Source: Bacilli bacterium
GTDB lineage: Bacteria; Bacillota_I; Bacilli_A; RFN20; CAG-826
NCBI GenBank assembly: GCA_034185265.1
Contig: JAXFZD010000017.1
Coordinates: 5,757 to 69,756, forward strand
Direction of reading: 5' to 3'
DNA length: 64,000 nucleotides
A program made the position numbers and the translations under genes. Positions within the stretch are counted from its first letter, which is position 1. Every line of letters begins with the position of its first letter. Positions 382 to 55,764 of the stretch are shown here, one piece after another. Below the pieces are notes generated by a model, which did no database searches, was not told where the DNA came from, and was given only the letters and a program-made list of their open reading frames with translations.

Positions 382-1333
382 TATACGTCCCGCCTCTTTT
401 TCAGATTTTATAGGTCAAGAGAAGATAAAAAAGATGCTTGAAGTTACTATTTTTTCTTCTGCAAAAAGGAAAGAGTCCTTAGAGCACGTTTTACTTGTTG
501 GACAAGCTGGACTAGGAAAAACTACTCTAGCAAATATTATAGCTAATGAACTTGGCGGAAAAATAATAGCGACAAGTGCGCCTAGTCTAGAAAAAAATGG
601 AGATTTGGCAGGACTTCTTTCTTTACTTAACCCAGGAGACGTCTTATTTATAGATGAAATTCATAGATTAAATAAATCTATTGAAGAACTTTTATATAGT
701 GCAATCGAAGACTATAAAGTTTCGATCACAGTTAATAATAATGGAGTTAGTAAGCCTTTAATCATGAAACTTCCGCCATTTACTTTAATTGGAGCGACAA
801 CCAAGATGGGCTCTTTATCACATTCTTTCTATGACAGATTTACTCTTGTATTAAATTTTGAATATTATTCTCAACAAGAAATCTGTCTCATCTTAAAAAG
901 AACAGCCAGAATTTTTAAGATGGAGATCGATGAAGAATCTTGCAAACTCATCGCTCAAAGAAGTAGAGAAACTCCAAGAGTTGCGAATAAAATTTTAAAA
1001 AAAATAAGAGATTATTATTTGTATAAAGGATTAAAGAAAATTAACAAAAACGATACCCTGTCTGCCCTGGATTTGTTTTCTATCGATTCTTTAGGGCTTG
1101 AAGAACTAGATCGAAAATATCTTTTAACTTTAATAAGTGAATATAAAGGAGGACCAGTTGGAGTATCAACATTAGCTTCTAGACTTAATCAAGAAGAGAC
1201 TAATCTGATTGAAATCGTAGAACCATTTTTACTTAGACAAAGGCTTATTATTAGAGGTCCTAGAGGTCGTCTTGCTACTACTTTAGCATATGAACATTTT
1301 GGATTAAAAAATCCTGATGAAAAAGGGAGATAG
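359..1333 (+). CDS. ruvB: Holliday junction branch migration ATPase RuvB
   Basis: 324 aa. Walker A GQAGLGKTT and Walker B LFIDEIHRL are present. AGGAGGGG lies just upstream of ATG 359. Confidence 0.95.
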   Translation: MEKIENINIRPASFSDFIGQEKIKKMLEVTIFSSAKRKESLEHVLLVGQAGLGKTTLANIIANELGGKIIATSAPSLEKNGDLAGLLSLLNPGDVLFIDEIHRLNKSIEELLYSAIEDYKVSITVNNNGVSKPLIMKLPPFTLIGATTKMGSLSHSFYDRFTLVLNFEYYSQQEICLILKRTARIFKMEIDEESCKLIAQRSRETPRVANKILKKIRDYYLYKGLKKINKNDTLSALDLFSIDSLGLEELDRKYLLTLISEYKGGPVGVSTLASRLNQEETNLIEIVEPFLLRQRLIIRGPRGRLATTLAYEHFGLKNPDEKGR

Positions 1334-1335
1334 CG

Positions 1336-1378
1336 GGGATTTGCAGAGTTTTTTACTGTAAAACCCACTTATTTTTTC
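1336..1378 (+). terminator. Rho-independent terminator after ruvB
   Basis: GGGATTTGCAG (1336-1346) pairs with CTGTAAAACCC (1356-1366) with one mismatch and one G-T wobble. A TTATTTTTT run follows. Confidence 0.5.
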
Positions 1379-1533
1379 TTCATAGGATTAACAGTTATAG
1401 TCTTTAGATATAAAAAATTAAAAATTTTTCTTTTTTTCCAAATATTTATATTTGCTTTATATACTCTTTTAGAGTATTCTTTTCCACGTATCCAGGCTAG
1501 AGCCTGATTGTATTTTCTTACGGGAGGAAATTT

Positions 1534-4338
1534 ATGCGTCGTTTCGTATCATATTTGGCCTTATGTGGCGTAATGCTTCTTGGAGTCGGCATTTCTGTTA
1601 AACCAGTTGTTACTTCCATGAACACTGACGTTGCATATTCAGATGGTAAAACCCTTTATTTCAAAGCATCTTCTTATGATGTTACAAAGCAAGAAGAAAC
1701 TTGCGTTGGTGGTTATACTGATTTCTTAACTGAATATGACTATACCGATAATGGTCAACTTGCTATCGAATATTTATCTGATGTCGTTACATCAAGACTT
1801 AATACTTGGAAGATGTCTGAGTATAAGGTTGAAATTGAAGGTTACGATACAATTAAAGTTACTTTAAGAGCAGCTAACAATTCTGCTATCACTTATGAAT
1901 ATTTAGAGAAATATCTTTCATTCTCAGGCCAAGATTATGAATTAGACGTTACAGCAATCGCTGATAAAGATAACGATCCAACCAAAGAAACATGGAAAAC
2001 AATGATTGATGGAAATGAAGCAGCTATCGAATATATTGAACAATCCGGTTATTCAATTCCTGTCGTTGTTATCGGTGTTAATAGCGAATGCGTTTCCGAT
2101 TTCCTTGAACTTGTTAAATATTGCGACGAACATACAACTGAAGAAAATCAAGAGACTGGTGAACCAGGAAAATCAACAAATATTGTTGTTTGGGCAAATA
2201 GAGCACCAGATGATACTTATGAACAAGCTTCTAAAGATGCTAACGTTGCATCCAGAGTTTTAAAGATTCAAACAACTGCAAATGATAATGCTGTTTGGTA
2301 TAGAACTGCTAAAGAAAAAGAAGAAAAATCTTCTCCACATTTACAATTAGTTCCAGAATCATCTGCTTTAACTGCAAATGGATATGATCCTTCTAAAGGA
2401 AAAGAAGCTTATGAAGCTGCTGTTTTCCTACGTAATATGATCAATGCATCTAGATTAGGAAATAGTGAAAAACAACAATTTATGTTGAATTACACCTATA
2501 CAATGGATGCGCCAGCTAGCGTAGAAAAATTAATTTCAACAACTTCAATATTAACTTTATCAATGTCAAAGACATTAATTTCAACAATCGTTGTATTTGC
2601 TTTAATTGCTTTGATTCTTTGCTTATTTGATAGATTGCTTGGTGTTGCTGAACTTACCGCAGTAACTGGAGTTGCCTTCTTATCATTATTATTATTTACA
2701 TGTTTCGGTGCTCAATTTAATATTGCTACTTTATTAGGTGTAGCTGTTGCTGGAATTTTAGGGGCATTTGGTTCAATTCTTTATTCACATAAATTAAAGA
2801 ATGAAATTTATAAAGGAAGAACATTAAAGAAAGCTCATATTGAAGCTTCTAGACGTTCAATGTTACCGATTGTTGACGCTGGTATCGTTTCTATTTTAGT
2901 TGGTATCTTCATTTATGCATTTACTGGAGATATCGTCTCTAAATTAGGATTAATGATGATTATTGGTGGAGCAATTTCCATCCTTTGGAACCTCATTATT
3001 ACAAGAATGCTAGGCTGGTTAGTCTGCAACGATAACACAGTTAATAATAAATTCGCTTCTTACTTAAATATTAATAAAGAGAAGATTCCAAACTTATTAA
3101 AAGATGAAAAGCAAACGTATTTCGGACCTTATGAAGGTAAGAACTTCCAAAAAGGAAAGAAGATTCTTGGTGTCTTTACTGGTGCCGTAATGATTGCTGG
3201 AATCGTTTGTTTAGCGGTATTTGGCGCTAAAAATGGTGGAGATCCATATAACGACGCTGCTTTAAAACAAACTTCTACAGTTTTAAGACTTGATGTCAAA
3301 TCTACTGAACAAGGCAAGATTTCTATCCAACAATTTGAATCTGAAGATAAATTATTAAATAGCCAAGGTGACTATTCCGATATTTTCCATAATATCAAAG
3401 TTAACGACAAAGTCTTCGCTGATAATGTAAAAGAAATCACGTTATCCGAACTTTCTCACCCAGTATTTGATTCAAGTGATGGTGAAAATGGTACAACTTA
3501 CTATTATTTCTATTACAGCATCACTTTAAAGAAATCTTACGATTTAAATAAGAATGACTACAAATTTGATTATGGTTCAGATGGTCAATATAACAAACAT
3601 TTAATTGGATCGTTAGACGATGCATTTGAAAATATCTTCTTAGAAGATGTCTATGGAGATTCAACAGCTTATGCAGTTGAATTTGCTACAATTAATCCAA
3701 AAGTTGGTGCTCCATATCTTAAAGACTTAGCAATTGGATTATCAATTGGCTTAGCAGTTGCTGCTGTTTATATGATGTTAAGATATAGACTTTCAAGAGG
3801 ATTAACTGCTTCATTACTCTCATTTGTTGCTGGTTTTACTGGTATGGCATTCTTTGTTATTACTAGAATTAGTGTTACTCCAATCTTCCCAATTGGTGCG
3901 ATTGCAGCTGCATTATTAACATTAGTTGCTTCAATTTATATCCTGAACGAAGAGAAAGAATTATTCAAAGAATCTCATGAAAGAGATAAGACATCCTTCT
4001 CTAGAAGAAGTGAAAACTTAATTAGAGCTAATTCAACCGCTGCAGCTCCATATTTATTCTTCACATTATTAATCTTCTATATTGGAATTATTCTCTTTGG
4101 ACTTGGAACAATTGAATACTCCTATGTATATCTCTCCTTAATAATTGGTGGATTATTCGGTGTATCTTTAATCCTTGTCTGCATGACTCCAATGTCAATC
4201 TTCATCGCAAAATATCTAGCTAAGATCAAATTCAAACCTTTAAAGAAGAAAAAAGCTAAGAGAAAAGGTGGAGATTTAATGAAGAAAAAGAAAGGTGCAG
4301 AGCCAGAAGAGGCAATATTTATCGGAATTAATGATTAA
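1534..4338 (+). CDS. secDF: Fused protein-export membrane protein SecDF
   Basis: 934 aa. N-terminal membrane anchor, then a large extracytoplasmic region, then two multi-TM SecD/SecF-like bundles. GGGAGG SD is present. The secDF-recJ-rel order matches Bacillus. Confidence 0.8.
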   Translation: MRRFVSYLALCGVMLLGVGISVKPVVTSMNTDVAYSDGKTLYFKASSYDVTKQEETCVGGYTDFLTEYDYTDNGQLAIEYLSDVVTSRLNTWKMSEYKVEIEGYDTIKVTLRAANNSAITYEYLEKYLSFSGQDYELDVTAIADKDNDPTKETWKTMIDGNEAAIEYIEQSGYSIPVVVIGVNSECVSDFLELVKYCDEHTTEENQETGEPGKSTNIVVWANRAPDDTYEQASKDANVASRVLKIQTTANDNAVWYRTAKEKEEKSSPHLQLVPESSALTANGYDPSKGKEAYEAAVFLRNMINASRLGNSEKQQFMLNYTYTMDAPASVEKLISTTSILTLSMSKTLISTIVVFALIALILCLFDRLLGVAELTAVTGVAFLSLLLFTCFGAQFNIATLLGVAVAGILGAFGSILYSHKLKNEIYKGRTLKKAHIEASRRSMLPIVDAGIVSILVGIFIYAFTGDIVSKLGLMMIIGGAISILWNLIITRMLGWLVCNDNTVNNKFASYLNINKEKIPNLLKDEKQTYFGPYEGKNFQKGKKILGVFTGAVMIAGIVCLAVFGAKNGGDPYNDAALKQTSTVLRLDVKSTEQGKISIQQFESEDKLLNSQGDYSDIFHNIKVNDKVFADNVKEITLSELSHPVFDSSDGENGTTYYYFYYSITLKKSYDLNKNDYKFDYGSDGQYNKHLIGSLDDAFENIFLEDVYGDSTAYAVEFATINPKVGAPYLKDLAIGLSIGLAVAAVYMMLRYRLSRGLTASLLSFVAGFTGMAFFVITRISVTPIFPIGAIAAALLTLVASIYILNEEKELFKESHERDKTSFSRRSENLIRANSTAAAPYLFFTLLIFYIGIILFGLGTIEYSYVYLSLIIGGLFGVSLILVCMTPMSIFIAKYLAKIKFKPLKKKKAKRKGGDLMKKKKGAEPEEAIFIGIND

Positions 4339-4340
4339 TT

Positions 4341-5891
4341 ATGTCATCTTTCCAAGATAAAATAATTGATTACTACGGCTTTTCAAAAGAAGAGGCAAAC
4401 GATTTGTTTCGTGAACCCTCTTTTTCTTATTTACCTACGCTTGAAGATGAAGAACAAGCTATTATAGCTAAACTTAGAATAAAGCAAGCGATAAAAAATA
4501 AAGAAAAGATTTTAATTTACGGAGACTATGATTGTGATGGAATCATGTCTTCTTCAATTATTTTTAAATCAATTATTTCTTTAGGAGGAAGTTCATCAAT
4601 TTTCATTCCTTCTAGATATATAGATGGATATGGAATCAATACTGAGAACGCAACTAAGATTTCTAAAGCGGGTTATAAGCTTGTAATTTTAGTTGATAAC
4701 GGGATTTCAGCTAACGAGCAAGTTAAGGTTTTGACTGATGCAAAAATTGACGTAATTATCATCGATCATCATGAAAATAACGGAGATTTACCGCAAAATT
4801 GCATAATTATTCACCCTCTAACAACAAAATATAAAGACTTAATATACAACGTTTCTGCTGGTTATCTATCTTTTATGTTCTCGACAATGTTATTAGAAAA
4901 AGTTGATGATTATCTTCTTACTTTAGGAGGACTTTCGACTCTTTCTGATCTAATGACATTAAAAGAATATAACCGCGAAATTGTTCGTTTAGCCTTAAAA
5001 AATCTTAACCTATATAAATATAAAGAAATAATGTATTTAACTTCAAAAACATTCATTGATGAAAACGTTTTAAATAGTGAAGTTATTCCTTGCATTAATT
5101 CAATTGGAAGAATGGACCTTGAACATAAAATTAGAGTTCTTGTTTACTATTTTGCTTCTTCTAGTGAAAGCGAAAAACAAAAATATTCTTCTTGGATGAA
5201 AAAAAATAATGATGAAAGAAAAGAAATAACTAAAATAGCCTACGATAAAGTTATTTTGGATCCATTTGAGCCAGGAATTTGCATAATTTCTTCACTTATA
5301 GAAGGATTAAATGGAATTCTTTCCAATAGATTAATGACAGAAAATAATAAAGCTACAATCGTATTTTCTCCTTCTAAAATAGATCCAGAAATTCTCGTAG
5401 GGTCCATGAGAAGTAAAAAATCATTTTCTTGCTTTATAGCATTTGATAAATTATCTCATTATATCTTAAGAAGTGGAGGACATGAATTAGCTGCAGGAAT
5501 ATCCATAAAAAAGAGTGATTATCCATATTTCAGAGAAGAATTCATGGAATTATGCAAAAAATATCCTCTTGATGATGAAGAAAAGAATTATCTTGATCTA
5601 TCCATGAATGAACTAACTTCATCTTCTTATCATACTTTAAGAAAATTTGGCCCATTTGGATTTGGCTATAAAGAACCAACTTTTAGAATAGTTGATATGC
5701 CGATTTCTTACTTAAGATTTTCAAAAGATGAAAAATATGTCTTAACATATCTTGATAACGATGTAAGATTATTCTCGTTTTCCTTAGGTAAAAGAGAACT
5801 CATTAATAAACAAGCGGAAACATTTATAGTAAAATTTACTTTGAACGAATATAGAGGAAAATTCACGATTGATATTCTCTTATCTAGGTAA
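4341..5891 (+). CDS. recJ: Single-stranded-DNA-specific exonuclease RecJ (short DHH/DHHA1 form)
   Basis: 516 aa. DHH-family motifs GDYDCDG, VDNGIS and IDHHEN are present. The gene sits between secDF and rel. Confidence 0.8.
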   Translation: MSSFQDKIIDYYGFSKEEANDLFREPSFSYLPTLEDEEQAIIAKLRIKQAIKNKEKILIYGDYDCDGIMSSSIIFKSIISLGGSSSIFIPSRYIDGYGINTENATKISKAGYKLVILVDNGISANEQVKVLTDAKIDVIIIDHHENNGDLPQNCIIIHPLTTKYKDLIYNVSAGYLSFMFSTMLLEKVDDYLLTLGGLSTLSDLMTLKEYNREIVRLALKNLNLYKYKEIMYLTSKTFIDENVLNSEVIPCINSIGRMDLEHKIRVLVYYFASSSESEKQKYSSWMKKNNDERKEITKIAYDKVILDPFEPGICIISSLIEGLNGILSNRLMTENNKATIVFSPSKIDPEILVGSMRSKKSFSCFIAFDKLSHYILRSGGHELAAGISIKKSDYPYFREEFMELCKKYPLDDEEKNYLDLSMNELTSSSYHTLRKFGPFGFGYKEPTFRIVDMPISYLRFSKDEKYVLTYLDNDVRLFSFSLGKRELINKQAETFIVKFTLNEYRGKFTIDILLSR

Positions 5892-5897
5892 CTAACA

Positions 5898-8138
5898 ATG
5901 GAAGAAAAGAAATTAAAACCAAACGGTGGATATCCAATGCATACCTTCGAAGATCTTCGAGCTCTTTATGCTGTCTATATTCGCGATGTTAAATCTAATG
6001 AATTAATTAAAAAAGCATATGCTTTCGCCTCTGAAAAGCACGCAGGAATATTTAGAAAAAGCGGAGAAGCTTATATTCAACACCCTATCGAAGTAGCTTA
6101 TATTTGTGCTCAACTTCAATCTGGTCCAGCCACAATTATTTCTGCTTTACTTCACGATGTAGTTGAAGATACAGATACAAAACTTGAAGTAATTATCGAG
6201 CTTTTTGGCGAAGATGTAGGAAAAATAGTTAATGCTTTAACTAAAATTCAAAGAATGAAGCTTTCTCATATGACTGCAGAAGATTTTGAAGCAGAAGATC
6301 ATAGAAAAATCTTCCTTGGAATGGCACAAGACGTCAGAGTTATCATTGTCAAACTCGCTGATAGACTTCATAACTTAAGAACTCTAGATTCCTTATCTAA
6401 AGAAAGACAACTTGCAATTTCTAGAGAAACTTTAGATGTGTTTACTCCAATCGCTCATAGATTAGGTATATATACTGTTCAATCTGAGATGGAAGATCTT
6501 TCCTTAAAATATCTTGAACCAGCTAAATATAATGAAATATTAGGTTTAGTTAATGAGAAATATGAAAACCGTAAATCTTCTTTAGAATCATTAAAGAAAA
6601 GAATTGCTGACAGCATCTACGCAGAAAAAATACCATTTAAAATTGAATCTAGAGTCAAATCTATCTACTCAATTTATAAGAAAATGTACTTAAAAGGGCA
6701 TTCTTTTGATGATATATACGATGTTTTAGCTATTAGAGTTATTACAAAAACTGTTGTTAACTGCTACGAAATATTAGGTTTAATCCATCAATCTTATTCT
6801 CCAATTCCTGGAAGATTTAAAGATTACATTGCAATGCCTAAACCTAACATGTATCAATCTTTACATACTTCAATTATTGCTGGTGATGGCAATGCTTTTG
6901 AAGTTCAAATTAGAACTGAAGAAATGGATCAAGTTGCAGAAACAGGCGTTGCAGCTCACTGGAAATATAAAGAAACAGCAAATAAATCTGCAAAAGAAGA
7001 ACAAAAAGAAATTGAAGAAAAGCTTCACTGGTTCAGAGATTTTGTCTCTCTTTCAGGCGAAAGCAAAGATGATTCGGCAAAAGATTATATTAAATCTCTA
7101 ACTAACGATATTTTCGGAGCAAATGTTTATGTTTTTACTCCTTTAGGTAAAGTTATTGAGATTCCTAGCGGTGCTACTACGCTTGATTTTGCTTATAAAA
7201 TTCATACTAAAGTTGGTGATAATGCAATTGGCGCAATCGTAAATGGAGTTGGTGTCCCACTTAATACAATCTTAAAAACCGGAGATATCTGTGAAATTAG
7301 AACTTCAAAAACATCGTCTGGTCCTAATTCTTCATGGCTAGATATAGCAAAAACTGCCTCCGCTAAAGCTCATATTAGAAAAGCTTTACAGAAAAAAGAT
7401 GCAGAAATTATGAAGGAAGAAAGATCTAAAAATGGAAGACAGTCCCTTCTAGATGCTTTTAGACTCCAAGGATATACTTCAGAAGAAGAAATAGATAAGA
7501 TACTTTCCACAAACGAAAATAAACTTAGAAATGAATTCCATTTTGATGATTTAGAAGATTTCTATGTCATGATAAATAGTAGAAATCCTGCGCCAGCTGC
7601 AGTTTTAGAATTTTTAAGAATTAAAAGAAGAATTGATATATTTGAAAATGCTAAAAGAAAGAATAAAAACCAAAAAAGTTTCGATGATAGCTCGCTTCCT
7701 GTCTATGTTAATGGAGGTGTTACAGGTTTAGCTATTTCTTTAGCGCAGTGCTGCTGTCCAATTCCAGGAGATGATATAACTGGATATATAACTAAAGGAA
7801 AAGGCATTACAGTTCATAGAAAGTCTTGTCCAAATGTAGCAAATCAATCTAGAAGACTTATTGATGTCCACTGGAAAGACAATTTGGGAATGTCTTCTTA
7901 TAACGTAGATATAGAAATCTATGCTAACGATAGAACAAATTTAGTCGCTGATATTCTCGCTACTCTTGCTAGTAAAGGAATAGGAATTACGGATTTAAAT
8001 GCACATTTAATCAAAGAAAATATGAATACAGTTGTTAATTTAACTGTCACTGTTCCTGGATCAAAAGATCTTTCCGATGCCTTTGCTTTACTTTTAGGAA
8101 TTAAAGGAATCTATTCTGTAAATAGAGTTATTCACTAG
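5898..8138 (+). CDS. relA: Bifunctional (p)ppGpp synthetase/hydrolase (RelA/SpoT homologue)
   Basis: 746 aa. HD hydrolase motif HPIEVA...LLHDVVEDT is present. The length is consistent with a synthetase core plus TGS/ACT-type C-terminal domains. Confidence 0.95.
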   Translation: MEEKKLKPNGGYPMHTFEDLRALYAVYIRDVKSNELIKKAYAFASEKHAGIFRKSGEAYIQHPIEVAYICAQLQSGPATIISALLHDVVEDTDTKLEVIIELFGEDVGKIVNALTKIQRMKLSHMTAEDFEAEDHRKIFLGMAQDVRVIIVKLADRLHNLRTLDSLSKERQLAISRETLDVFTPIAHRLGIYTVQSEMEDLSLKYLEPAKYNEILGLVNEKYENRKSSLESLKKRIADSIYAEKIPFKIESRVKSIYSIYKKMYLKGHSFDDIYDVLAIRVITKTVVNCYEILGLIHQSYSPIPGRFKDYIAMPKPNMYQSLHTSIIAGDGNAFEVQIRTEEMDQVAETGVAAHWKYKETANKSAKEEQKEIEEKLHWFRDFVSLSGESKDDSAKDYIKSLTNDIFGANVYVFTPLGKVIEIPSGATTLDFAYKIHTKVGDNAIGAIVNGVGVPLNTILKTGDICEIRTSKTSSGPNSSWLDIAKTASAKAHIRKALQKKDAEIMKEERSKNGRQSLLDAFRLQGYTSEEEIDKILSTNENKLRNEFHFDDLEDFYVMINSRNPAPAAVLEFLRIKRRIDIFENAKRKNKNQKSFDDSSLPVYVNGGVTGLAISLAQCCCPIPGDDITGYITKGKGITVHRKSCPNVANQSRRLIDVHWKDNLGMSSYNVDIEIYANDRTNLVADILATLASKGIGITDLNAHLIKENMNTVVNLTVTVPGSKDLSDAFALLLGIKGIYSVNRVIH

Positions 8139-49098: not shown

Positions 49099-49493
49099 AA
49101 ATCTTCTCCTGTAAAAGCATATGGAAGTAATTCTCTTGGAGTTGTTTCTTTAATATCCCCTTCTAAATTAGAAAGACAAATCGGCATATCTAAAGGACAG
49201 AGTTCATGAATAACTTGTCTACATGCTCCACAAGGAGAAATAGGTTCTTTTGTTTTTCCTATTATTGCTAAAGCAACAAAATCTTCTTTTTTATAGCCGT
49301 GATTCATTGCATTATAAATTGCATTTCTTTCTGCACACATACATAAAGGATAAGAAGAATTTTCTACATTACATCCATGGAAAACTTTTCCATCTTTAGT
49401 TTCTAAAGCTGCGCCAACAGCAAATTTAGAATAAGGTGAATAAGAATTCTTTCTAGCTAATTTTGCTTCTTCTAATAATTTCTTAAAATCCAT
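49095..49493 (-). CDS. cdd: Cytidine deaminase
   Basis: 132 aa. The zinc motifs CAERNAI and PCGACRQV are present. Confidence 0.9.
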   Translation of the reverse strand: MDFKKLLEEAKLARKNSYSPYSKFAVGAALETKDGKVFHGCNVENSSYPLCMCAERNAIYNAMNHGYKKEDFVALAIIGKTKEPISPCGACRQVIHELCPLDMPICLSNLEGDIKETTPRELLPYAFTGEDL

Positions 49494-49959
49494 TTTCTTC
49501 TCCCTTTAAATAGATATTTAAAATTTCTTCTTGTAACGGAAACATAACCTTTTCATCATCTTCTTTCATATGATCATAGCCTAGAAGATGTAATAAACCA
49601 TGAATAAATAGGAAACAAACTTCTCTATTTAAGCTATTTCCAATATTTTTGGCTTGTTCTTGGGCAACATCCAAACAAATAAATATTTCCCCTAAAAGAA
49701 CTGGAATATCTTTTGAGTTAATATGTCCTATATCAGATTTATCATCCAAAAAAGCAAAAGAAATAACATCTGTTTCTCTATCAATCTTTCGATATTCCCT
49801 ATTGATTTCGTGGATTTTTTCTCTATCAACTAAATTTACATCTACTTCGTAATTTGTCTTAATGGATAAATGATTGAAGGTAATTTCTAATAATTTTAAA
49901 AACTTTTCCTCGTAAAAATCATAGATTTCGTCAAGTTCGTTATTGAAAACAAGTTCCAT
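49483..49959 (-). CDS. ybeY: rRNA maturation endoribonuclease YbeY
   Basis: 158 aa. The motif HGLLHLLGYDH is present. Confidence 0.9.
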   Translation of the reverse strand: MELVFNNELDEIYDFYEEKFLKLLEITFNHLSIKTNYEVDVNLVDREKIHEINREYRKIDRETDVISFAFLDDKSDIGHINSKDIPVLLGEIFICLDVAQEQAKNIGNSLNREVCFLFIHGLLHLLGYDHMKEDDEKVMFPLQEEILNIYLKGEENGF

Positions 49960-49999: not shown

Positions 50000-51211
50000 T
50001 TATAATAAATGTTGTCTAAAATAGAATTCTTCTTTCCTTCTTTTCTTTATATTTTTTTCTTCCGTTAAAACTTTTAAGAACATACTTTGTAAAAAAAGCA
50101 AAGTTAGACTTTTCATAATTAAATAAGAAGGATTTAGTTTCTGATAAAAGACAAATGAGAATAAAAACAAAATTCCTAAAGAAAAAACATAGATAATTGA
50201 TTGATTTAGAATAACGCTTCTGCTGTATTTCATTGCTTTACTATTCATTTCTTCTAATAAGGCAATTCTTTCTTCTTTAGATAAGTCGTTAGTACCTACA
50301 TAAGTTGATTCCATCGAAGAAATTTTTCTTTCTTGCTTAGAAAAAGAAGGTTCTATAAACAAGAAATTTACAAGCATAAATGCATACATTATAAGTATGC
50401 AGGCTCCAAAAAACATGTCTTCTAGGAAAAGAAATATTGAGAAGAAAGCATTGGTTAAAACATTACAAAGAAATATAGGTATTGTGGAAAAAAGACTACC
50501 TTTGAGGAAATTGTAATGTTCGAGATTCTCTTTTCTTTCTAACACATTCTCAGAGTCCACACACTTAAGATATTTCTTATCAAAATTCTTTAGAAATAGG
50601 CTTTTACCATTAAGGTCAACTAAAGAAAAGATAAGAAACAAAAAGAAAAGGCTTACGGAAATAAATGCAGGCACCTCCTCATTTGATAATAAATAGACAC
50701 CGCAAGCCAAGCTTATAATTGGTAGGATGGATAAGCCAGCCATTATGAATTGTCTTGATAAAGGCAAGATTTTCTCATGAGAATAACGGATTCCTAAATC
50801 TTGGTATTCCTCTACTCTAAGGATAATGCCAGTGAATATAGAAATAAATTCGTCAAGATGGATAGAATACCTACCAAGTTCTGGATCGATTAAGATAAAC
50901 TTACCTCTTTTTTTACGTAGTACGAGCAAAAGATGGAGACTACGATTAACATTCACGACACCTAGTAAAGGAAATTCCTTGTTCAAAGCAATGTCATTTT
51001 TATCTAAAAGCCTACTAGCCCCTAAAGAACACCCTAAAGATTTTCCATAGTTGATAATATCTTCTAGTGAAGGCGAACGGTTGCCTTCAATTTTCGGTTC
51101 AGGGGCAAATAAGATATCTCTTCGATTAAGCACAGTAAAATATATTGCGTTTTTAACCGAAGCATACCCGCAACCATTTCGCGAAGATTGAAAAGCAAAT
51201 TCCCGCCTCAT
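50000..51211 (-). CDS. Peptidase C39 (double-glycine leader peptidase) domain fused to an ABC-exporter-like 6-TM domain, without a nucleotide-binding domain
   Basis: 403 aa. Q8 and C14 occur in FQSSRNGCGYAS, H93 in SLHLLLVL, and D109 in ILIDPELG. About six hydrophobic helices follow. The ORF ends with no Walker motifs, and the next gene is ybeY. Confidence 0.6.
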   Translation of the reverse strand: MRREFAFQSSRNGCGYASVKNAIYFTVLNRRDILFAPEPKIEGNRSPSLEDIINYGKSLGCSLGASRLLDKNDIALNKEFPLLGVVNVNRSLHLLLVLRKKRGKFILIDPELGRYSIHLDEFISIFTGIILRVEEYQDLGIRYSHEKILPLSRQFIMAGLSILPIISLACGVYLLSNEEVPAFISVSLFFLFLIFSLVDLNGKSLFLKNFDKKYLKCVDSENVLERKENLEHYNFLKGSLFSTIPIFLCNVLTNAFFSIFLFLEDMFFGACILIMYAFMLVNFLFIEPSFSKQERKISSMESTYVGTNDLSKEERIALLEEMNSKAMKYSRSVILNQSIIYVFSLGILFLFSFVFYQKLNPSYLIMKSLTLLFLQSMFLKVLTEEKNIKKRRKEEFYFRQHLL

Positions 51212-51265
51212 GCTATATAGTTAGGAGAAAACGCAAAAAAGTTTAAATTAAATTTTATACATAAA

Positions 51266-51293
51266 ATAAAAAATCGCCGATACTTTCGACGAT
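51266..51293 (-). terminator. Rho-independent terminator after rpsU
   Basis: The minus strand reads ATCGTCG-aaagtat-CGGCGAT (one G-U pair), followed by TTTTTTATTTTAT. Confidence 0.6.
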
Positions 51294-51310
51294 TACAAGT
51301 GATTTTACAA

Positions 51311-51487
51311 CTAGAATTTTTTTCTTCTAGCTAACTTGGATTTCATTTTTCTCTTTAATCCAGGTTTTAAATAAGCCTCTCTTTTTCTACATTCAAGTAA
51401 GATTCCAGACTTATTAACGCCTCTTTTGAAACGTCTTAAGCCATCATCTAAAGATTCACCTTCACGTAGAACTACTTTAATAGACAC
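51311..51487 (-). CDS. rpsU: 30S ribosomal protein S21 (not in the supplied ORF track; GTG start)
   Basis: My translation is (M)[57 protein letters not shown]. An AGGAAG SD is present, and an in-frame TAA lies directly upstream of the GTG. Confidence 0.9.
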
Positions 51488-52525: not shown

Positions 52526-53821
52526 TTAGTCGATTGCAACGGATGAATTATAATTGACTATACCAAATTTATTTGTTAAATCTTCATTAGAATTCACGCC
52601 AACAAGAAGATAGTTGCTCGTATGACCATAACAAATTTTCTTTTCTTTGTCATACTTTTCAAATAAAACTTCCATATCCTTATTATAAAAAGAGGATTTA
52701 TAGTCATTTCTTAAAGATTTAGATAAAGCTAGAAGTTCATTTACGCGACGTTTTTTAGTTTGCGAATTCACGTCTTTCATTCTGGAAGCAGCTGTTCCTT
52801 CTCTACTGGAAAAAGGAAATACATGAATTTCAGCGAATTTAATATCCTTACATAATTCTACTGTTTCTTTCCATTCTTGCTCAGTTTCTAAAGGAAATCC
52901 AACTATTATATCAGTTGTAATCGCAATATCTGGTCGGATTTCTCTTATTTTATTTACCTTCTCCCTAAAAGTTTCAACGTCATAATTGCGTTTCATTCTA
53001 CCTAAAACTGACGATGAGCCCGATTGCAATGAAATATGAAGATGAGAAACAATCTGAGGATATTTTTTAAGTAAAGATAAAAAATATTCATCAGTTTCTG
53101 TAAAATCTATTGATGAAATCCTTATTCTTTTTAACTCTGGATTAGCCAAAATCATTTCTTCTAATAAGTTAGAAAGTCCATAAGAATCTCCATAAAGATC
53201 TTTTCCATAACTTCCTATATCAATTCCGGTAATAACAATTTCTTTGAAGTCAGATTGAACTAAGTTTTTAACTTCTTCTAGGACAAGTTCTTTTTTTCTA
53301 GATCTAGAAACTCCTCTAACAAAAGGAATTAAGCAATAAGAGCAAAAATGATTACATCCATCTTGGACTTTTACATAGGCTCTAACTCTTTCTTTATAGT
53401 TACTATTAACTAAATCTTCATAACTTTCTGATTGAATGTTAACTTTTATATCTAAAATAGGTTTTTTATCCACTGAAAAAGACTTTATGTAAGGAATAAT
53501 CTTTTTTCGTCTTGTTGTTCCAATGACAATATCTGCCCCACATTCTATTGCTTCTTCACCATTTTTTTGAGTATAGCAACCCATTGCGACTAATATTGCA
53601 TGAGAATTATTTTGTCTGAAAGAACGTATATGTTGACGAGATTTTTTATCCGCCATTCCGGTCACTGAACAAGTATTTAAAATAATTACATCGGCTTCCT
53701 TAATATCTTTAGTTTCCTTGCCTCCAAGAGAAAGAAGTTCTTGGCCAATTGAAAAAGTTTCATATGTATTTACTTTGCATCCAAGCGAAAATAAATAATA
53801 TGAAAAATTATTTCTTAACAT
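52526..53821 (-). CDS. mtaB: Radical-SAM methylthiotransferase, MtaB-like (MiaB family)
   Basis: It begins MLRNNFSYYLFSLGCKVN. The radical-SAM motif CNHFCSYCLIP is present. AGGAG precedes ATG 53821, whereas the ORF track used the upstream TTG at 53842. It sits downstream of rsmE, like Bacillus yqeV. Confidence 0.8.
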   Translation of the reverse strand: MLRNNFSYYLFSLGCKVNTYETFSIGQELLSLGGKETKDIKEADVIILNTCSVTGMADKKSRQHIRSFRQNNSHAILVAMGCYTQKNGEEAIECGADIVIGTTRRKKIIPYIKSFSVDKKPILDIKVNIQSESYEDLVNSNYKERVRAYVKVQDGCNHFCSYCLIPFVRGVSRSRKKELVLEEVKNLVQSDFKEIVITGIDIGSYGKDLYGDSYGLSNLLEEMILANPELKRIRISSIDFTETDEYFLSLLKKYPQIVSHLHISLQSGSSSVLGRMKRNYDVETFREKVNKIREIRPDIAITTDIIVGFPLETEQEWKETVELCKDIKFAEIHVFPFSSREGTAASRMKDVNSQTKKRRVNELLALSKSLRNDYKSSFYNKDMEVLFEKYDKEKKICYGHTSNYLLVGVNSNEDLTNKFGIVNYNSSVAID

Positions 53822-54611
53822 GTTTGGTAAATCTCCTGTCAATAGAGATATTATCGGATGTATTTATACTCAAAAATCTACTAGAAATAAACTTATTATC
53901 AACTAATGCCTTTATAAATCTTTCTCTATCATTATCAAAGAAAGCATCAACAACTGGAGCAGTTCTTTCTCTGATATTTTCATAATTAGGATGATGGCAA
54001 TCTTTATCAAATAAGGCAACTCTTGCATTTAGACGTCCTTGATTATTAACAAAGAAAATTGACAAAGAATCTTTATCATAAAACGCTGCTTCATCTCCTA
54101 CTCTTTTTAATAAAATGAGATTTGTAAATGAAGAATCGAAAACATCAACTCCGTAAGTATCAAAAGGATCTACGACCGCACTTTCAAAGTATTTTAAAAG
54201 AATCTTATAAGGATTATTAGTTAATAATTCTAATCTATTATTATAAATTTGATTAATTGTTCTAGAAAAAATAGGAAGGAAAATATTAGATTCTTTCTCT
54301 TCAATGTGAGGAAGATTAGCACATTTTTCTTTTACTAAGGCTTGAAGCTTTTCTGGATCAACTTTAGATCCTACTTTTTCCACTTCTTTTCTTTCACGGA
54401 AATAAAACTTTTCAAATGTTTTCTTATTAATTAAGGATTTTATTATGATATTCGCTCTAATAACATCAAATGGCTCTACTGCTTTTTGAAAAATAGAAAA
54501 ATAAGGTACATCGTTTAACAAAATTGCATTTCCTAAAAAATATCTCATTTGTTCAGAATTAGAAAATGGGGTATGTCTTTGTCTTTTTGCTAGTGTTTCA
54601 AATAGATCCAT
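53808..54611 (-). CDS. Hypothetical protein; I recognise no family
   Basis: 267-aa ORF. Its start overlaps the rsmE stop (TAATG), and its last 14 nt overlap the mtaB start. Confidence 0.5.
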   Translation of the reverse strand: MDLFETLAKRQRHTPFSNSEQMRYFLGNAILLNDVPYFSIFQKAVEPFDVIRANIIIKSLINKKTFEKFYFRERKEVEKVGSKVDPEKLQALVKEKCANLPHIEEKESNIFLPIFSRTINQIYNNRLELLTNNPYKILLKYFESAVVDPFDTYGVDVFDSSFTNLILLKRVGDEAAFYDKDSLSIFFVNNQGRLNARVALFDKDCHHPNYENIRERTAPVVDAFFDNDRERFIKALVDNKFISSRFLSINTSDNISIDRRFTKHVKK

Positions 54612-55330
54612 TAGAATTTTTCCTCTATATATGAAGATATTATACTACAAGAATAAAGCGCAGCGGTTTCTGCTCTTAAAATTCTTTTACCTAAACTTAC
54701 AAAAATGAAATTATTTTCCCTAGCTAAAGAAATCTCTTTATCAGAAAATCCTCCCTCAGGTCCAATAATAATTAAGATTTTATCGGATTTTTCAATATTT
54801 TTTAACTCGCTTAATAAAGTATTAGATTTGCCAAAATCACCTTCATAAGCAAAAAAGATTTTATCGTAAAAAGAGAAATCAATTTTAGATAAAGATGAAA
54901 AAACATCAATTGAAGGTATTAAACTTCTTCTACATTGTTCGCAAGCTTCCTTAGCAATTTTCTCTAATCTAATAAATTTATTATCATCTTTAGTTATTTT
55001 AGCAACACTCCGATCAGAATTTACTACAAGGAATTTTTTAACTCCGACTTCACACCCTTTCATGACAATAAGTTCATTATAAGAGGATGATTTTAAATTA
55101 GAAAAAGCTAAATCTAGTTCTAGAGGTAATTCTCTATCACTAGAAAGCTCGCTAACAACTTTTATTTCAAGTGGTTTAATCTTACTAACAATGCATGTAA
55201 AAAGCTTTCCATTAAAAGAAATCTCGATTTCTTCGCCTATATTTACTCTTTTAACATTAATTAGATGATGTAAATCATCTTTACTTAGAGTTACAAATCC
55301 ATTATTAATTTCACCAAAATAATGCTGCAT
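54611..55330 (-). CDS. rsmE: 16S rRNA (uracil1498-N3)-methyltransferase RsmE
   Basis: 239 aa. The C-terminal SPOUT motif GPEGGFSDKEI...LGKRILRAETAAL is present. Confidence 0.85.
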   Translation of the reverse strand: MQHYFGEINNGFVTLSKDDLHHLINVKRVNIGEEIEISFNGKLFTCIVSKIKPLEIKVVSELSSDRELPLELDLAFSNLKSSSYNELIVMKGCEVGVKKFLVVNSDRSVAKITKDDNKFIRLEKIAKEACEQCRRSLIPSIDVFSSLSKIDFSFYDKIFFAYEGDFGKSNTLLSELKNIEKSDKILIIIGPEGGFSDKEISLARENNFIFVSLGKRILRAETAALYSCSIISSYIEEKF

Positions 55331-55764
55331 TATCTAATATAAACTCCGTCTTTATCTTTTATGGATTTATTTATTGAAAGTATTCCATTAAGAATATAAA
55401 CACAATAAATTCCTATCAAAGGGAAAATAAAAGCTAAAAATGACTTATAAACAGTAAAGAATAAAGGTAAAGCAATTGCTAAATAAACCAAAATCGTCGA
55501 AATTATATTAGCTGCTGCCCTTTTAGATTTTCCTAGATAAAAATTATGTAATCCAAATAGGCCACAGAATAACAAAAGAAGGAGATAGACTTTTTTCTTC
55601 TTGGCAGAATTAAAAGCAAGATTTCCTATCTTCTTTTGCTGCTCTATATCCGTCATATCCATTGTCTCATACGAAATAGAAATAGGATCTTTATGTCCGC
55701 AAAAAGGGCAGATATCCGTATCTAGACGAGAAATGGTTGCATCACAATATTTACATTTAGCCAT
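55330..55764 (-). CDS. Zinc-ribbon + TM2-domain membrane protein
   Basis: 144 aa. It has CKYC...CPFC at the N-terminus and the TM2 signature GLFGLHNFYLGK. Confidence 0.65.
   Translation of the reverse strand: MAKCKYCDATISRLDTDICPFCGHKDPISISYETMDMTDIEQQKKIGNLAFNSAKKKKVYLLLLLFCGLFGLHNFYLGKSKRAAANIISTILVYLAIALPLFFTVYKSFLAFIFPLIGIYCVYILNGILSINKSIKDKDGVYIR

Follow-up and report, generated by a model that had tools for sequence, protein, structure and literature searches.

Within a 64,000-nucleotide stretch of contig JAXFZD010000017.1 (assembly GCA_034185265.1) from a Bacilli bacterium, hereafter the window, the gene located between rpsU and ybeY was found to encode a homologue of the peptidase-containing transporters of the ATP-binding cassette (ABC) type (PCATs) in which the peptidase and the membrane domain are retained and the nucleotide-binding domain (NBD) is absent. 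We consider it reasonably probable that this gene is a functional, vertically inherited PCAT descendant whose product serves as a membrane-anchored, cytoplasm-facing leader peptidase of the double-glycine (GG) type, without ATP-driven export. The open reading frame (ORF) starts with ATG, and its TAA stop codon occupies 50000-50002 (-). The gene and its two domains are as follows:

50000..51211 (-): coding sequence of the NBD-less PCAT homologue, 403 aa plus TAA (ORF listing, end-to-end family alignment, AlphaFold, Foldseek)
50804..51211 (-): C39 peptidase domain, papain-like, double-glycine type, residues 1-136, cytoplasmic (PF03412, Foldseek)
50003..50761 (-): membrane domain, residues 151-403, type-I ABC-exporter fold with shortened intracellular loops (AlphaFold, Foldseek)

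The N-terminal domain of the window protein matched PF03412 (Peptidase_C39) with 29.9 bits against a gathering cut-off of 22 (E=5.7e-7), and the same profile matched 56/56 aligned members of the family, with a best E of 7.7e-23. The initial annotation had considered the catalytic set Gln8, Cys14, His93 and Asp109 of the 403-aa ORF to be intact, and this was upheld when the residues were checked codon by codon. Residue conservation was counted in an alignment of 171 non-identical family members, with the following results:

51188..51190 (-): Gln8 codon, proposed oxyanion-hole residue; Gln in 153/161 non-gap sequences, aligned with the Gln of the full-length PCATs found at the same position in other genomes
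51170..51172 (-): Cys14 codon, catalytic nucleophile; Cys in 161/161 non-gap sequences and invariant in alignment A1
50933..50935 (-): His93 codon, catalytic base; His in 170/171, opposite the His of the PCAT1 peptidase domain 7n87 (phmmer)
50885..50887 (-): Asp109 codon, third triad member, in a D-P-x-x-G motif; Asp in 170/171, with Pro110 and Gly113 each in 98%

The phmmer alignment of the window protein with the PCAT1 peptidase domain 7n87 was marginal (E=0.016), and in it His93 and Asp109 lie opposite the His and the D-P-G motif of that domain. Foldseek also matched the peptidase domains of LahT150, ComA and PCAT1; for LahT150, ComA PEP and the C39-like domains of HlyB-type T1SS transporters, E was about 1e-5 to 1e-6. 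Among the NCBIfam models, only peptidase-containing families were matched, all far below their cut-offs; the best was NF045998, which aligned over the second half of the peptidase and the linker with 38 bits against a cut-off of 500.

The membrane domain was examined by structure prediction. AlphaFold2 run with a 56-sequence family alignment gave a model with a mean confidence (pLDDT) of 95.1 and a pTM of 0.89; the single-sequence run (pLDDT 43) was uninformative. The model contains an alpha/beta peptidase domain (residues 1-136) and six long helices at residues 151-176, 182-218, 223-264, 266-306, 312-355 and 361-402, and hydropathy likewise gave six transmembrane (TM) spans in the window protein. 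When the model was searched with Foldseek against the PDB, ranks 1-13 were all PCAT1 chains (E 1.4e-13 to 6e-9, TMq 0.47-0.61), with alignments of about 465 columns that span both the peptidase and the transmembrane domain (TMD). These were followed by HlyB, by the isolated LahT, ComA and PCAT1 peptidase domains, and then by the TMDs of the exporters McjD, YbtPQ, ABCB6, TAP, MsbA and TM287/288. The highest TMq values were obtained with inward-facing PCAT1 (7t55 and 9azl, 0.60-0.61) and the lowest with the ATP-bound, outward-facing structure 7t54 (0.47). PF00664, the profile of the ABC-exporter membrane domain, matched 0/56 family members, and the membrane domain is recognisable only by structure and by a weak colinear profile alignment to a PCAT. 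Both the C39 fold and the PCAT-type six-helix membrane domain put forward in the initial annotation were therefore borne out by hydropathy, the AlphaFold model and the Foldseek matches to PCAT1, and of the two Pfam profiles that it had proposed as a check, PF03412 was positive and PF00664 was negative. The cytoplasmic segments hold 25 Lys and Arg residues and the external loops 1, which places the N terminus, the C terminus, the peptidase and both long loops in the cytoplasm, as in a PCAT.

The window protein was found to have at least 170 homologues of approximately 400 aa, no two of them identical. A word-indexed search with the single window protein recovered only itself; a full HMMER scan of 1.84 billion representatives recovered 258 proteins at E<=1e-3, of which 126 reached E<=1e-10, and the best 150 matches were nearly all 380-420 aa long and aligned end to end. 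The public names of the family proteins are restricted to "cysteine peptidase family C39 domain-containing protein" and "hypothetical protein". A pattern scan derived from a 13-sequence alignment and run over 185,579 species genomes yielded 34 loci, in metagenome-assembled genomes labelled Ca. Enteromonas, Ca. Alloenteromonas, uncultured Erysipelotrichaceae, Bacilli or Mollicutes. In the part of PMC8035907 that follows its text on Ca. Enteromonas pullicola, Ca. Enteromonas is placed in the GTDB order RFN20, family CAG-826, and given a genome of 1.2 Mbp. At 34/34 loci the gene is located upstream of ybeY-cdd-era-recO-glyS on the same strand, and directly so except for an extra gene in L029-L031 and L033. 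Wherever the upstream flank was available, the block dnaJ-TM2-(rsmE)-hyp267-mtaB-rpmF-deoC-rpsU precedes the C39-TM gene; the exceptions are L029-L031, in which no rpsU match was found, and L034, which has unrelated DNA. The gene had initially been described as an orphan, accessory-looking insertion in a housekeeping string. The number of homologues, the position upstream of ybeY at every related locus and the full-length PCAT described below for the same slot of a sister lineage all contradict that description.

The ORF was intact in 33/33 complete loci from distinct genomes, with lengths of 395-414 aa, and pairwise dN/dS was 0.07-0.26 for pairs with dS <1. When the two domains were considered separately, dN/dS was 0.05-0.22 for the C39 domain and 0.07-0.25 for the TMD. 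Purifying selection acts on both domains, and since the values are alike, the membrane domain is as constrained as the protease. These results make it extremely improbable that the gene is a decaying remnant or pseudogene, as had been suggested, or that an NBD further downstream is masked by a fault of assembly or a frameshift. It is true that this gene evolves faster than any other in the cluster (27% median identity with the window protein, compared to 59-84% for the rpsU, ybeY, cdd, era and glyS products) and that its TMD is no longer matched by PF00664, both of which could be taken as signs of decay, but the intact reading frames, the dN/dS values and a triad that is nearly invariant in 171 sequences argue for retention. 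Moreover, the ORF with the same neighbours was present, 99% identical, in two independent assemblies of the window organism, and all homologues stop at one conserved C-terminal motif, which excludes an assembly artefact; nor does any frameshift conceal an NBD.

Full-length counterparts were found in the same slot of other genomes. The best matches of the family profile outside the family were 686-aa proteins with C39, ABC_membrane and ABC_tran domains (76-80 bits). The results of this search were dominated by near-identical Faecalibacillus PCATs, and this led to the positional orthologue. One of the 686-aa proteins is P0230 (WP_107029818.1) of Faecalibacillus intestinalis, order Erysipelotrichales; the gene of P0222, a closely similar protein, shares a 23-nt overlap with ybeY, after which come cdd-era-recO and, at a greater distance, glyS. 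By a second route, 80 metagenome loci were chosen through YbeY alone, and 1/80 had a family-profile match. This locus, L038, carries a 669-aa ORF with C39 (E=4.8e-31) and ABC_tran (E=5.2e-21) domains that is 27% identical to the Faecalibacillus PCAT. The full-length genes are:

L117-L119, 6001-8061 (+): full-length PCAT genes of the Faecalibacillus type, directly upstream of ybeY-cdd-era-recO
L038, 1946-3955 (+): full-length PCAT gene of a metagenome locus, 669 aa, 12 nt upstream of ybeY-cdd-era-recO

In the other YbeY-selected loci the gene before ybeY encodes PhoH, the 7TM-HD protein PgpH, YqfD or VanZ, in most cases PhoH or PgpH, according to a classification by motif that Pfam confirmed for six loci. 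Both outgroup loci are equally far from the window (Era 39%, YbeY 51%), and the RFN20 relatives are closer (Era 55-64% for complete matches). The initial annotation had asked whether relatives carry a full-length PCAT or nothing at this position; the former proved to be the case in Faecalibacillus and L038, and the RFN20 genomes carry the NBD-less form. Because a full-length PCAT occupies the same slot in a sister lineage, the RFN20 gene is best read, from sequence and gene order, as its positional orthologue; presumably the NBD of an ancestral ybeY-linked PCAT was lost in the RFN20 lineage, the break lying at the domain junction. The link of a PCAT to the ybeY/era operon appears to be undescribed in the literature searched.

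The point at which the protein ends was compared with the two full PCATs after these had been added to the family alignment with MAFFT. As the initial annotation had stated, the ORF contains no Walker A or ABC signature motif; it gives no ABC_tran match and ends at residue 403, at the TMD/NBD junction, and since ybeY begins 40 nt past the stop, there is no room for an NBD. The conserved motif at the C terminus continues across the family to K-E-E-x-Y-F-x-x-H-F. It aligns with EEKMVFEHFKEF of the L038 PCAT and ELQIIFERYKEM of P0222, immediately N-terminal to the NBDs, and its Y-F-x-x-H-F part lines up with "MVFEHFKEF" and "IIFERYKEM" of the two full PCATs, just ahead of the NBDs. The distance from the end of the peptidase to this junction is 265 residues in the RFN20 family compared to 313-316 residues in the positional full PCATs (approximately 50 residues shorter), and the gaps are located in the linker between the peptidase and TM1, in intracellular loop 1 (ICL1) and in intracellular loop 2 (ICL2). 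In the AlphaFold model the TM2-TM3 and TM4-TM5 turns comprise 4-5 residues without a separate coupling helix. The simplest reading of this alignment is that, after the NBD was lost, the cytoplasmic helical extensions that couple to it were trimmed. The conserved positions of the membrane domain are:

50579..50581 (-): Asp211 codon, part of an F-D motif where TM2 ends on the cytoplasmic side (ICL1); 98% of 171 sequences have Asp, which MAFFT pairs with the D of 'LFDQDY' from the L038 PCAT
50501..50503 (-): Lys237 codon, cytoplasmic side of TM3; Lys in 96% of 171
50309..50311 (-): Glu301 codon, where TM4 extends into the cytoplasm (ICL2); 99% of 171 sequences have Glu, aligned with a Glu in the PCAT of Faecalibacillus
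50009..50035 (-): C-terminal motif K-E-E-x-Y-F-x-x-H, residues 393-401, equivalent to the TMD/NBD junction of full PCATs; conserved in alignments A1 and A2

In full type-I ABC exporters, the ICL1, ICL2 and junction regions face the NBD. Conservation of F210 and D211 in ICL1, of E301 in ICL2 and of the C-terminal junction motif would therefore be expected of a split transporter, in which the 403-aa protein supplies the peptidase and the membrane half and the NBD is a separate polypeptide encoded elsewhere, with ATP-driven processing and export. Selection on the TMD as strong as that on the peptidase, and a protein that stops exactly where an NBD would start, point the same way. We nevertheless regard a split transporter as unlikely, given that the linker and the two intracellular loops have lost approximately 50 residues in comparison with the positional full PCATs and that the short turns of the model leave no separate coupling helix. 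Nearly all known type-I exporters carry the NBD and the TMD on one polypeptide. No ORF of >=150 aa with both Walker A and the ABC signature motif was found in the 64-kb window, and a regular-expression scan of 575 kb, comprising the window and the syntenic loci to which all partner and substrate scans were applied, found no ORF with both NBD motifs. Of the three readings offered in the initial annotation, the processing peptidase is thus favoured over the split transporter by the shortened loops and by the lack of an NBD gene in the loci examined, and decay is rejected.

How the NBD-less protein might work is suggested by studies of PCAT1. In its ATP-free state, the peptidase is docked on the lateral TM opening and the cargo is inserted into the cavity (PMC6959990). 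Cleavage requires the transporter core; once ATP is bound, the NBDs close and the peptidases disengage (PMC6959990). It follows from this mechanism that a PCAT without an NBD should stay permanently in a cleavage-competent, inward-facing-like arrangement, and the better match of the monomer model to inward-facing PCAT1 fits such an arrangement. We propose that the protein forms a membrane homodimer that resembles the ATP-free, inward-facing PCAT state, and that it removes a double-glycine-type leader from a cargo peptide or protein, or from several, encoded elsewhere in the genome. In the absence of an ATPase, alternating-access export would not take place, and the TMD would act as a substrate-holding scaffold needed for cleavage. 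The mature cargo would be released into the membrane or the cytoplasm, or would be passed to another route.

Several observations weigh against a leader peptidase of this kind. The structural model is that of a monomer, and the dimer and the docking of the peptidase are proposed only. A TMD constrained to the same degree as the peptidase suggests that it is more than an anchor. The retained ICL1 F-D, ICL2 Glu and junction motif of full exporters would also fit an NBD provided in trans. No substrate was found, in that neither the window nor the 34 related loci contained a GG-leader-like small ORF; the regular-expression scan for GG leaders over the 575 kb returned only five antisense chance ORFs, none of them conserved. 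No GG-leader gene was evident among the called neighbours of the full-length ybeY-linked PCATs. PADLOC gave no match for the family of the window gene.

The conservation of the TMD in length and helix number, together with its dN/dS of 0.07-0.25, could also be explained by transport without ATP, in which a dimeric membrane domain moves the cleaved cargo passively or by the proton gradient in the manner of SbmA. SbmA, whose structure is related to that of ABC TMDs, acts as a proton-driven secondary transporter (PMC13316013). However, no conserved charge was found within the membrane spans of the window family, D211, K237 and E301 all being on the cytoplasmic side; moreover, no SbmA structure was among the 50 Foldseek matches listed, and there was no Pfam SbmA/BacA match. 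An exporter of this type is accordingly judged improbable. A broader proposal, which we put forward tentatively and hold to be rather doubtful, is that the peptidase-TMD core is a working machine throughout the order, which would cleave GG-leader cargo and, using no ATP, let it go through the membrane or into it, passively or by means of the proton gradient, the cargo being a growth-linked envelope or signalling protein and not a bacteriocin. A growth-linked cargo is suggested because the full-length and the truncated forms both adjoin ybeY-era, and because the Faecalibacillus form overlaps ybeY.

The immediate flanks of the gene were consistent with the initial annotation, which had placed it behind the rpsU terminator without a Shine-Dalgarno (SD) motif and without a GG-leader small ORF in the adjoining spacers. 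These features are:

49483..49959 (-): ybeY, downstream neighbour and head of the ybeY-cdd-era-recO string (PF02130, E=8.7e-45), kept in every related locus
51311..51487 (-): rpsU, ribosomal protein S21, upstream neighbour (PF01165, E=3.7e-19; synteny)
51212..51310 (-): spacer of 99 nt between rpsU and the C39-TM gene, with a hairpin and T-run, a weak promoter-like pair and no SD motif

The ybeY start codon lies at 49959, which leaves a 40-nt gap after the stop of the 403-aa ORF. Just past rpsU, a terminator-like hairpin is followed by a T-run at 51294-51272 (-). The spacer also contains a weak promoter-like pair (TTTAAA, 18 nt, TAACTA) that ends 6 nt 5' of the ATG, and no GGAGG-type or other SD-like purine run was found 5' of the ATG. 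Neither spacer around the gene contained an ORF of >=20 aa or an Rfam match. Of the 34 related loci, 28 had no SD-like motif, and most of these carry a TA-rich hexamer that lies 5-6 nt ahead of the start codon. In loci L003-L036 a TTG-type hexamer was often found approximately 18-20 nt further up from the TA-rich hexamer, and one subclade (e.g. L017, L018, L025 and L026) has a clear GAGG-type SD before the C39-TM gene instead. Judged by these motifs, the window gene may have a promoter of its own and a leaderless transcript, and the lack of an SD together with the TA-rich hexamer may indicate that this transcript opens an operon with ybeY-cdd-era-recO. A Prp-type protease that trims the neighbouring ribosomal protein was considered and rejected, S21 being an ordinary protein of 58 aa without an N-terminal extension.

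Other observations were made on the related loci. The window genome has 31% G+C compared to 43-58% in all 34 RFN20-type loci; the gene order is the same, and the housekeeping proteins share 55-84% identity. The window organism belongs or is related to the RFN20-type group, with a strong shift towards AT. In the window, 53808-54611 (-) encodes a 267-aa protein without a Pfam family and 55330-55764 (-) a 144-aa membrane protein with a zinc ribbon and a TM2 domain. Both occur at the same position in nearly all related loci and are uncharacterised, lineage-typical parts of the dnaJ...mtaB block. Loci L015, L017, L020 and L027 are labelled Lachnospiraceae, Parasutterella excrementihominis, Paludibacteraceae and Bacteroidales; their genes follow the RFN20-type order, the neighbours share 60-84% identity with those of the window, and the labels are probably due to mis-binning or mislabelled bins. 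Upstream of the gene in L034, positions 1107-5900 contain unrelated ORFs, among them an ORF for a membrane protein of 747 aa whose C-terminal part is of the HD type and several short ORFs that may stem from mobile elements; this suggests a local rearrangement. The extra gene between the C39-TM gene and ybeY was found at L030 9227-10357 (+), L029 5762-6889, L031 9227-10354 and L033 1393-2310 (+). Its product of 305-376 aa begins with a soluble part, continues with a polar linker and ends in a part with multiple TM segments. A faint likeness to a degenerate NBD was noted by eye; this identity was discarded, as the proteins had no Pfam match, a mutual BLASTP E of 0.031 and no counterpart in the window.

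According to the current view, leader cleavage by PCATs is strictly coupled to ATP-driven export, and proteolysis needs the transporter core. A PCAT without an NBD that is under purifying selection across an order amounts to a natural uncoupling experiment, which tests the coupling of cleavage and export. It raises the question of whether the peptidase-TMD core is useful alone and what role the TM cavity has without a motor. These findings also bring to light an unremarked subfamily of ybeY-linked PCATs, located directly upstream of ybeY-cdd-era-recO in Erysipelotrichales and RFN20, and the family could be given a name of its own in place of the C39-domain and hypothetical labels. In uncultured gut bacteria with genomes as small as the approximately 1.2 Mb given in the portion of PMC8035907 concerned with Ca. 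Enteromonas pullicola, a retained membrane protease points to a processed protein that is important to the cell.

In comparison with known systems, the window protein resembles PCAT1 of Clostridium thermocellum and the PCAT/AMS proteins ComA, LahT, BlpA and LagD in its N-terminal C39 domain with Gln, Cys, His and Asp at PCAT-like spacing, and structurally in its six-helix type-I exporter membrane domain; the peptidase and the TMD in the predicted model are arranged as in inward-facing PCAT1. It differs from these proteins in that it has no NBD, its loops are approximately 50 residues shorter and its TMD is too diverged for PF00664. Its gene has no adjoining GG-leader gene and lies in a housekeeping string and not in a cluster for a bacteriocin or a ribosomally synthesised and post-translationally modified peptide (RiPP). 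Since it has no NBD, the window protein is not a PCAT proper. The NF045998 family (Mbov_0121, Mycoplasma) consists of peptidase domain-containing ABC transporters that are full length (673-position model) and have an NBD. In the literature searched, peptidase-only fragments (LahT150 and ComA PEP) were described as engineered, and no natural PCAT with a TMD and without an NBD was found. LahT150 and ComA PEP share the peptidase fold but are laboratory truncations without a TMD, whereas the window protein keeps its TMD naturally. The C39-like domains (CLDs) of the HlyB type have the same fold and lack the catalytic Cys, and an identity of this kind is ruled out by the invariant Cys14 of the window family. 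SbmA/BacA-like (SLiPT) proteins are related to ABC TMDs and, like the window protein, have no NBD (PMC13316013), but they have no peptidase domain and transport in the import direction. Membership in that group was rejected, as the window protein had no Pfam match besides C39 and its family has conserved charged residues only on the cytoplasmic side and no conserved intramembrane acidic residues. The ybeY-linked PCATs of Erysipelotrichales (P0230, P0222 and L038) occupy the same slot and are colinear with the window protein through the peptidase into the TMD. In contrast to the RFN20 form, they keep ABC_tran with Walker A, a signature-like LSSGQ or LSKGQ, Walker B and the H-loop; their intracellular loops are longer, and their upstream neighbour is an aminotransferase gene in place of rpsU.

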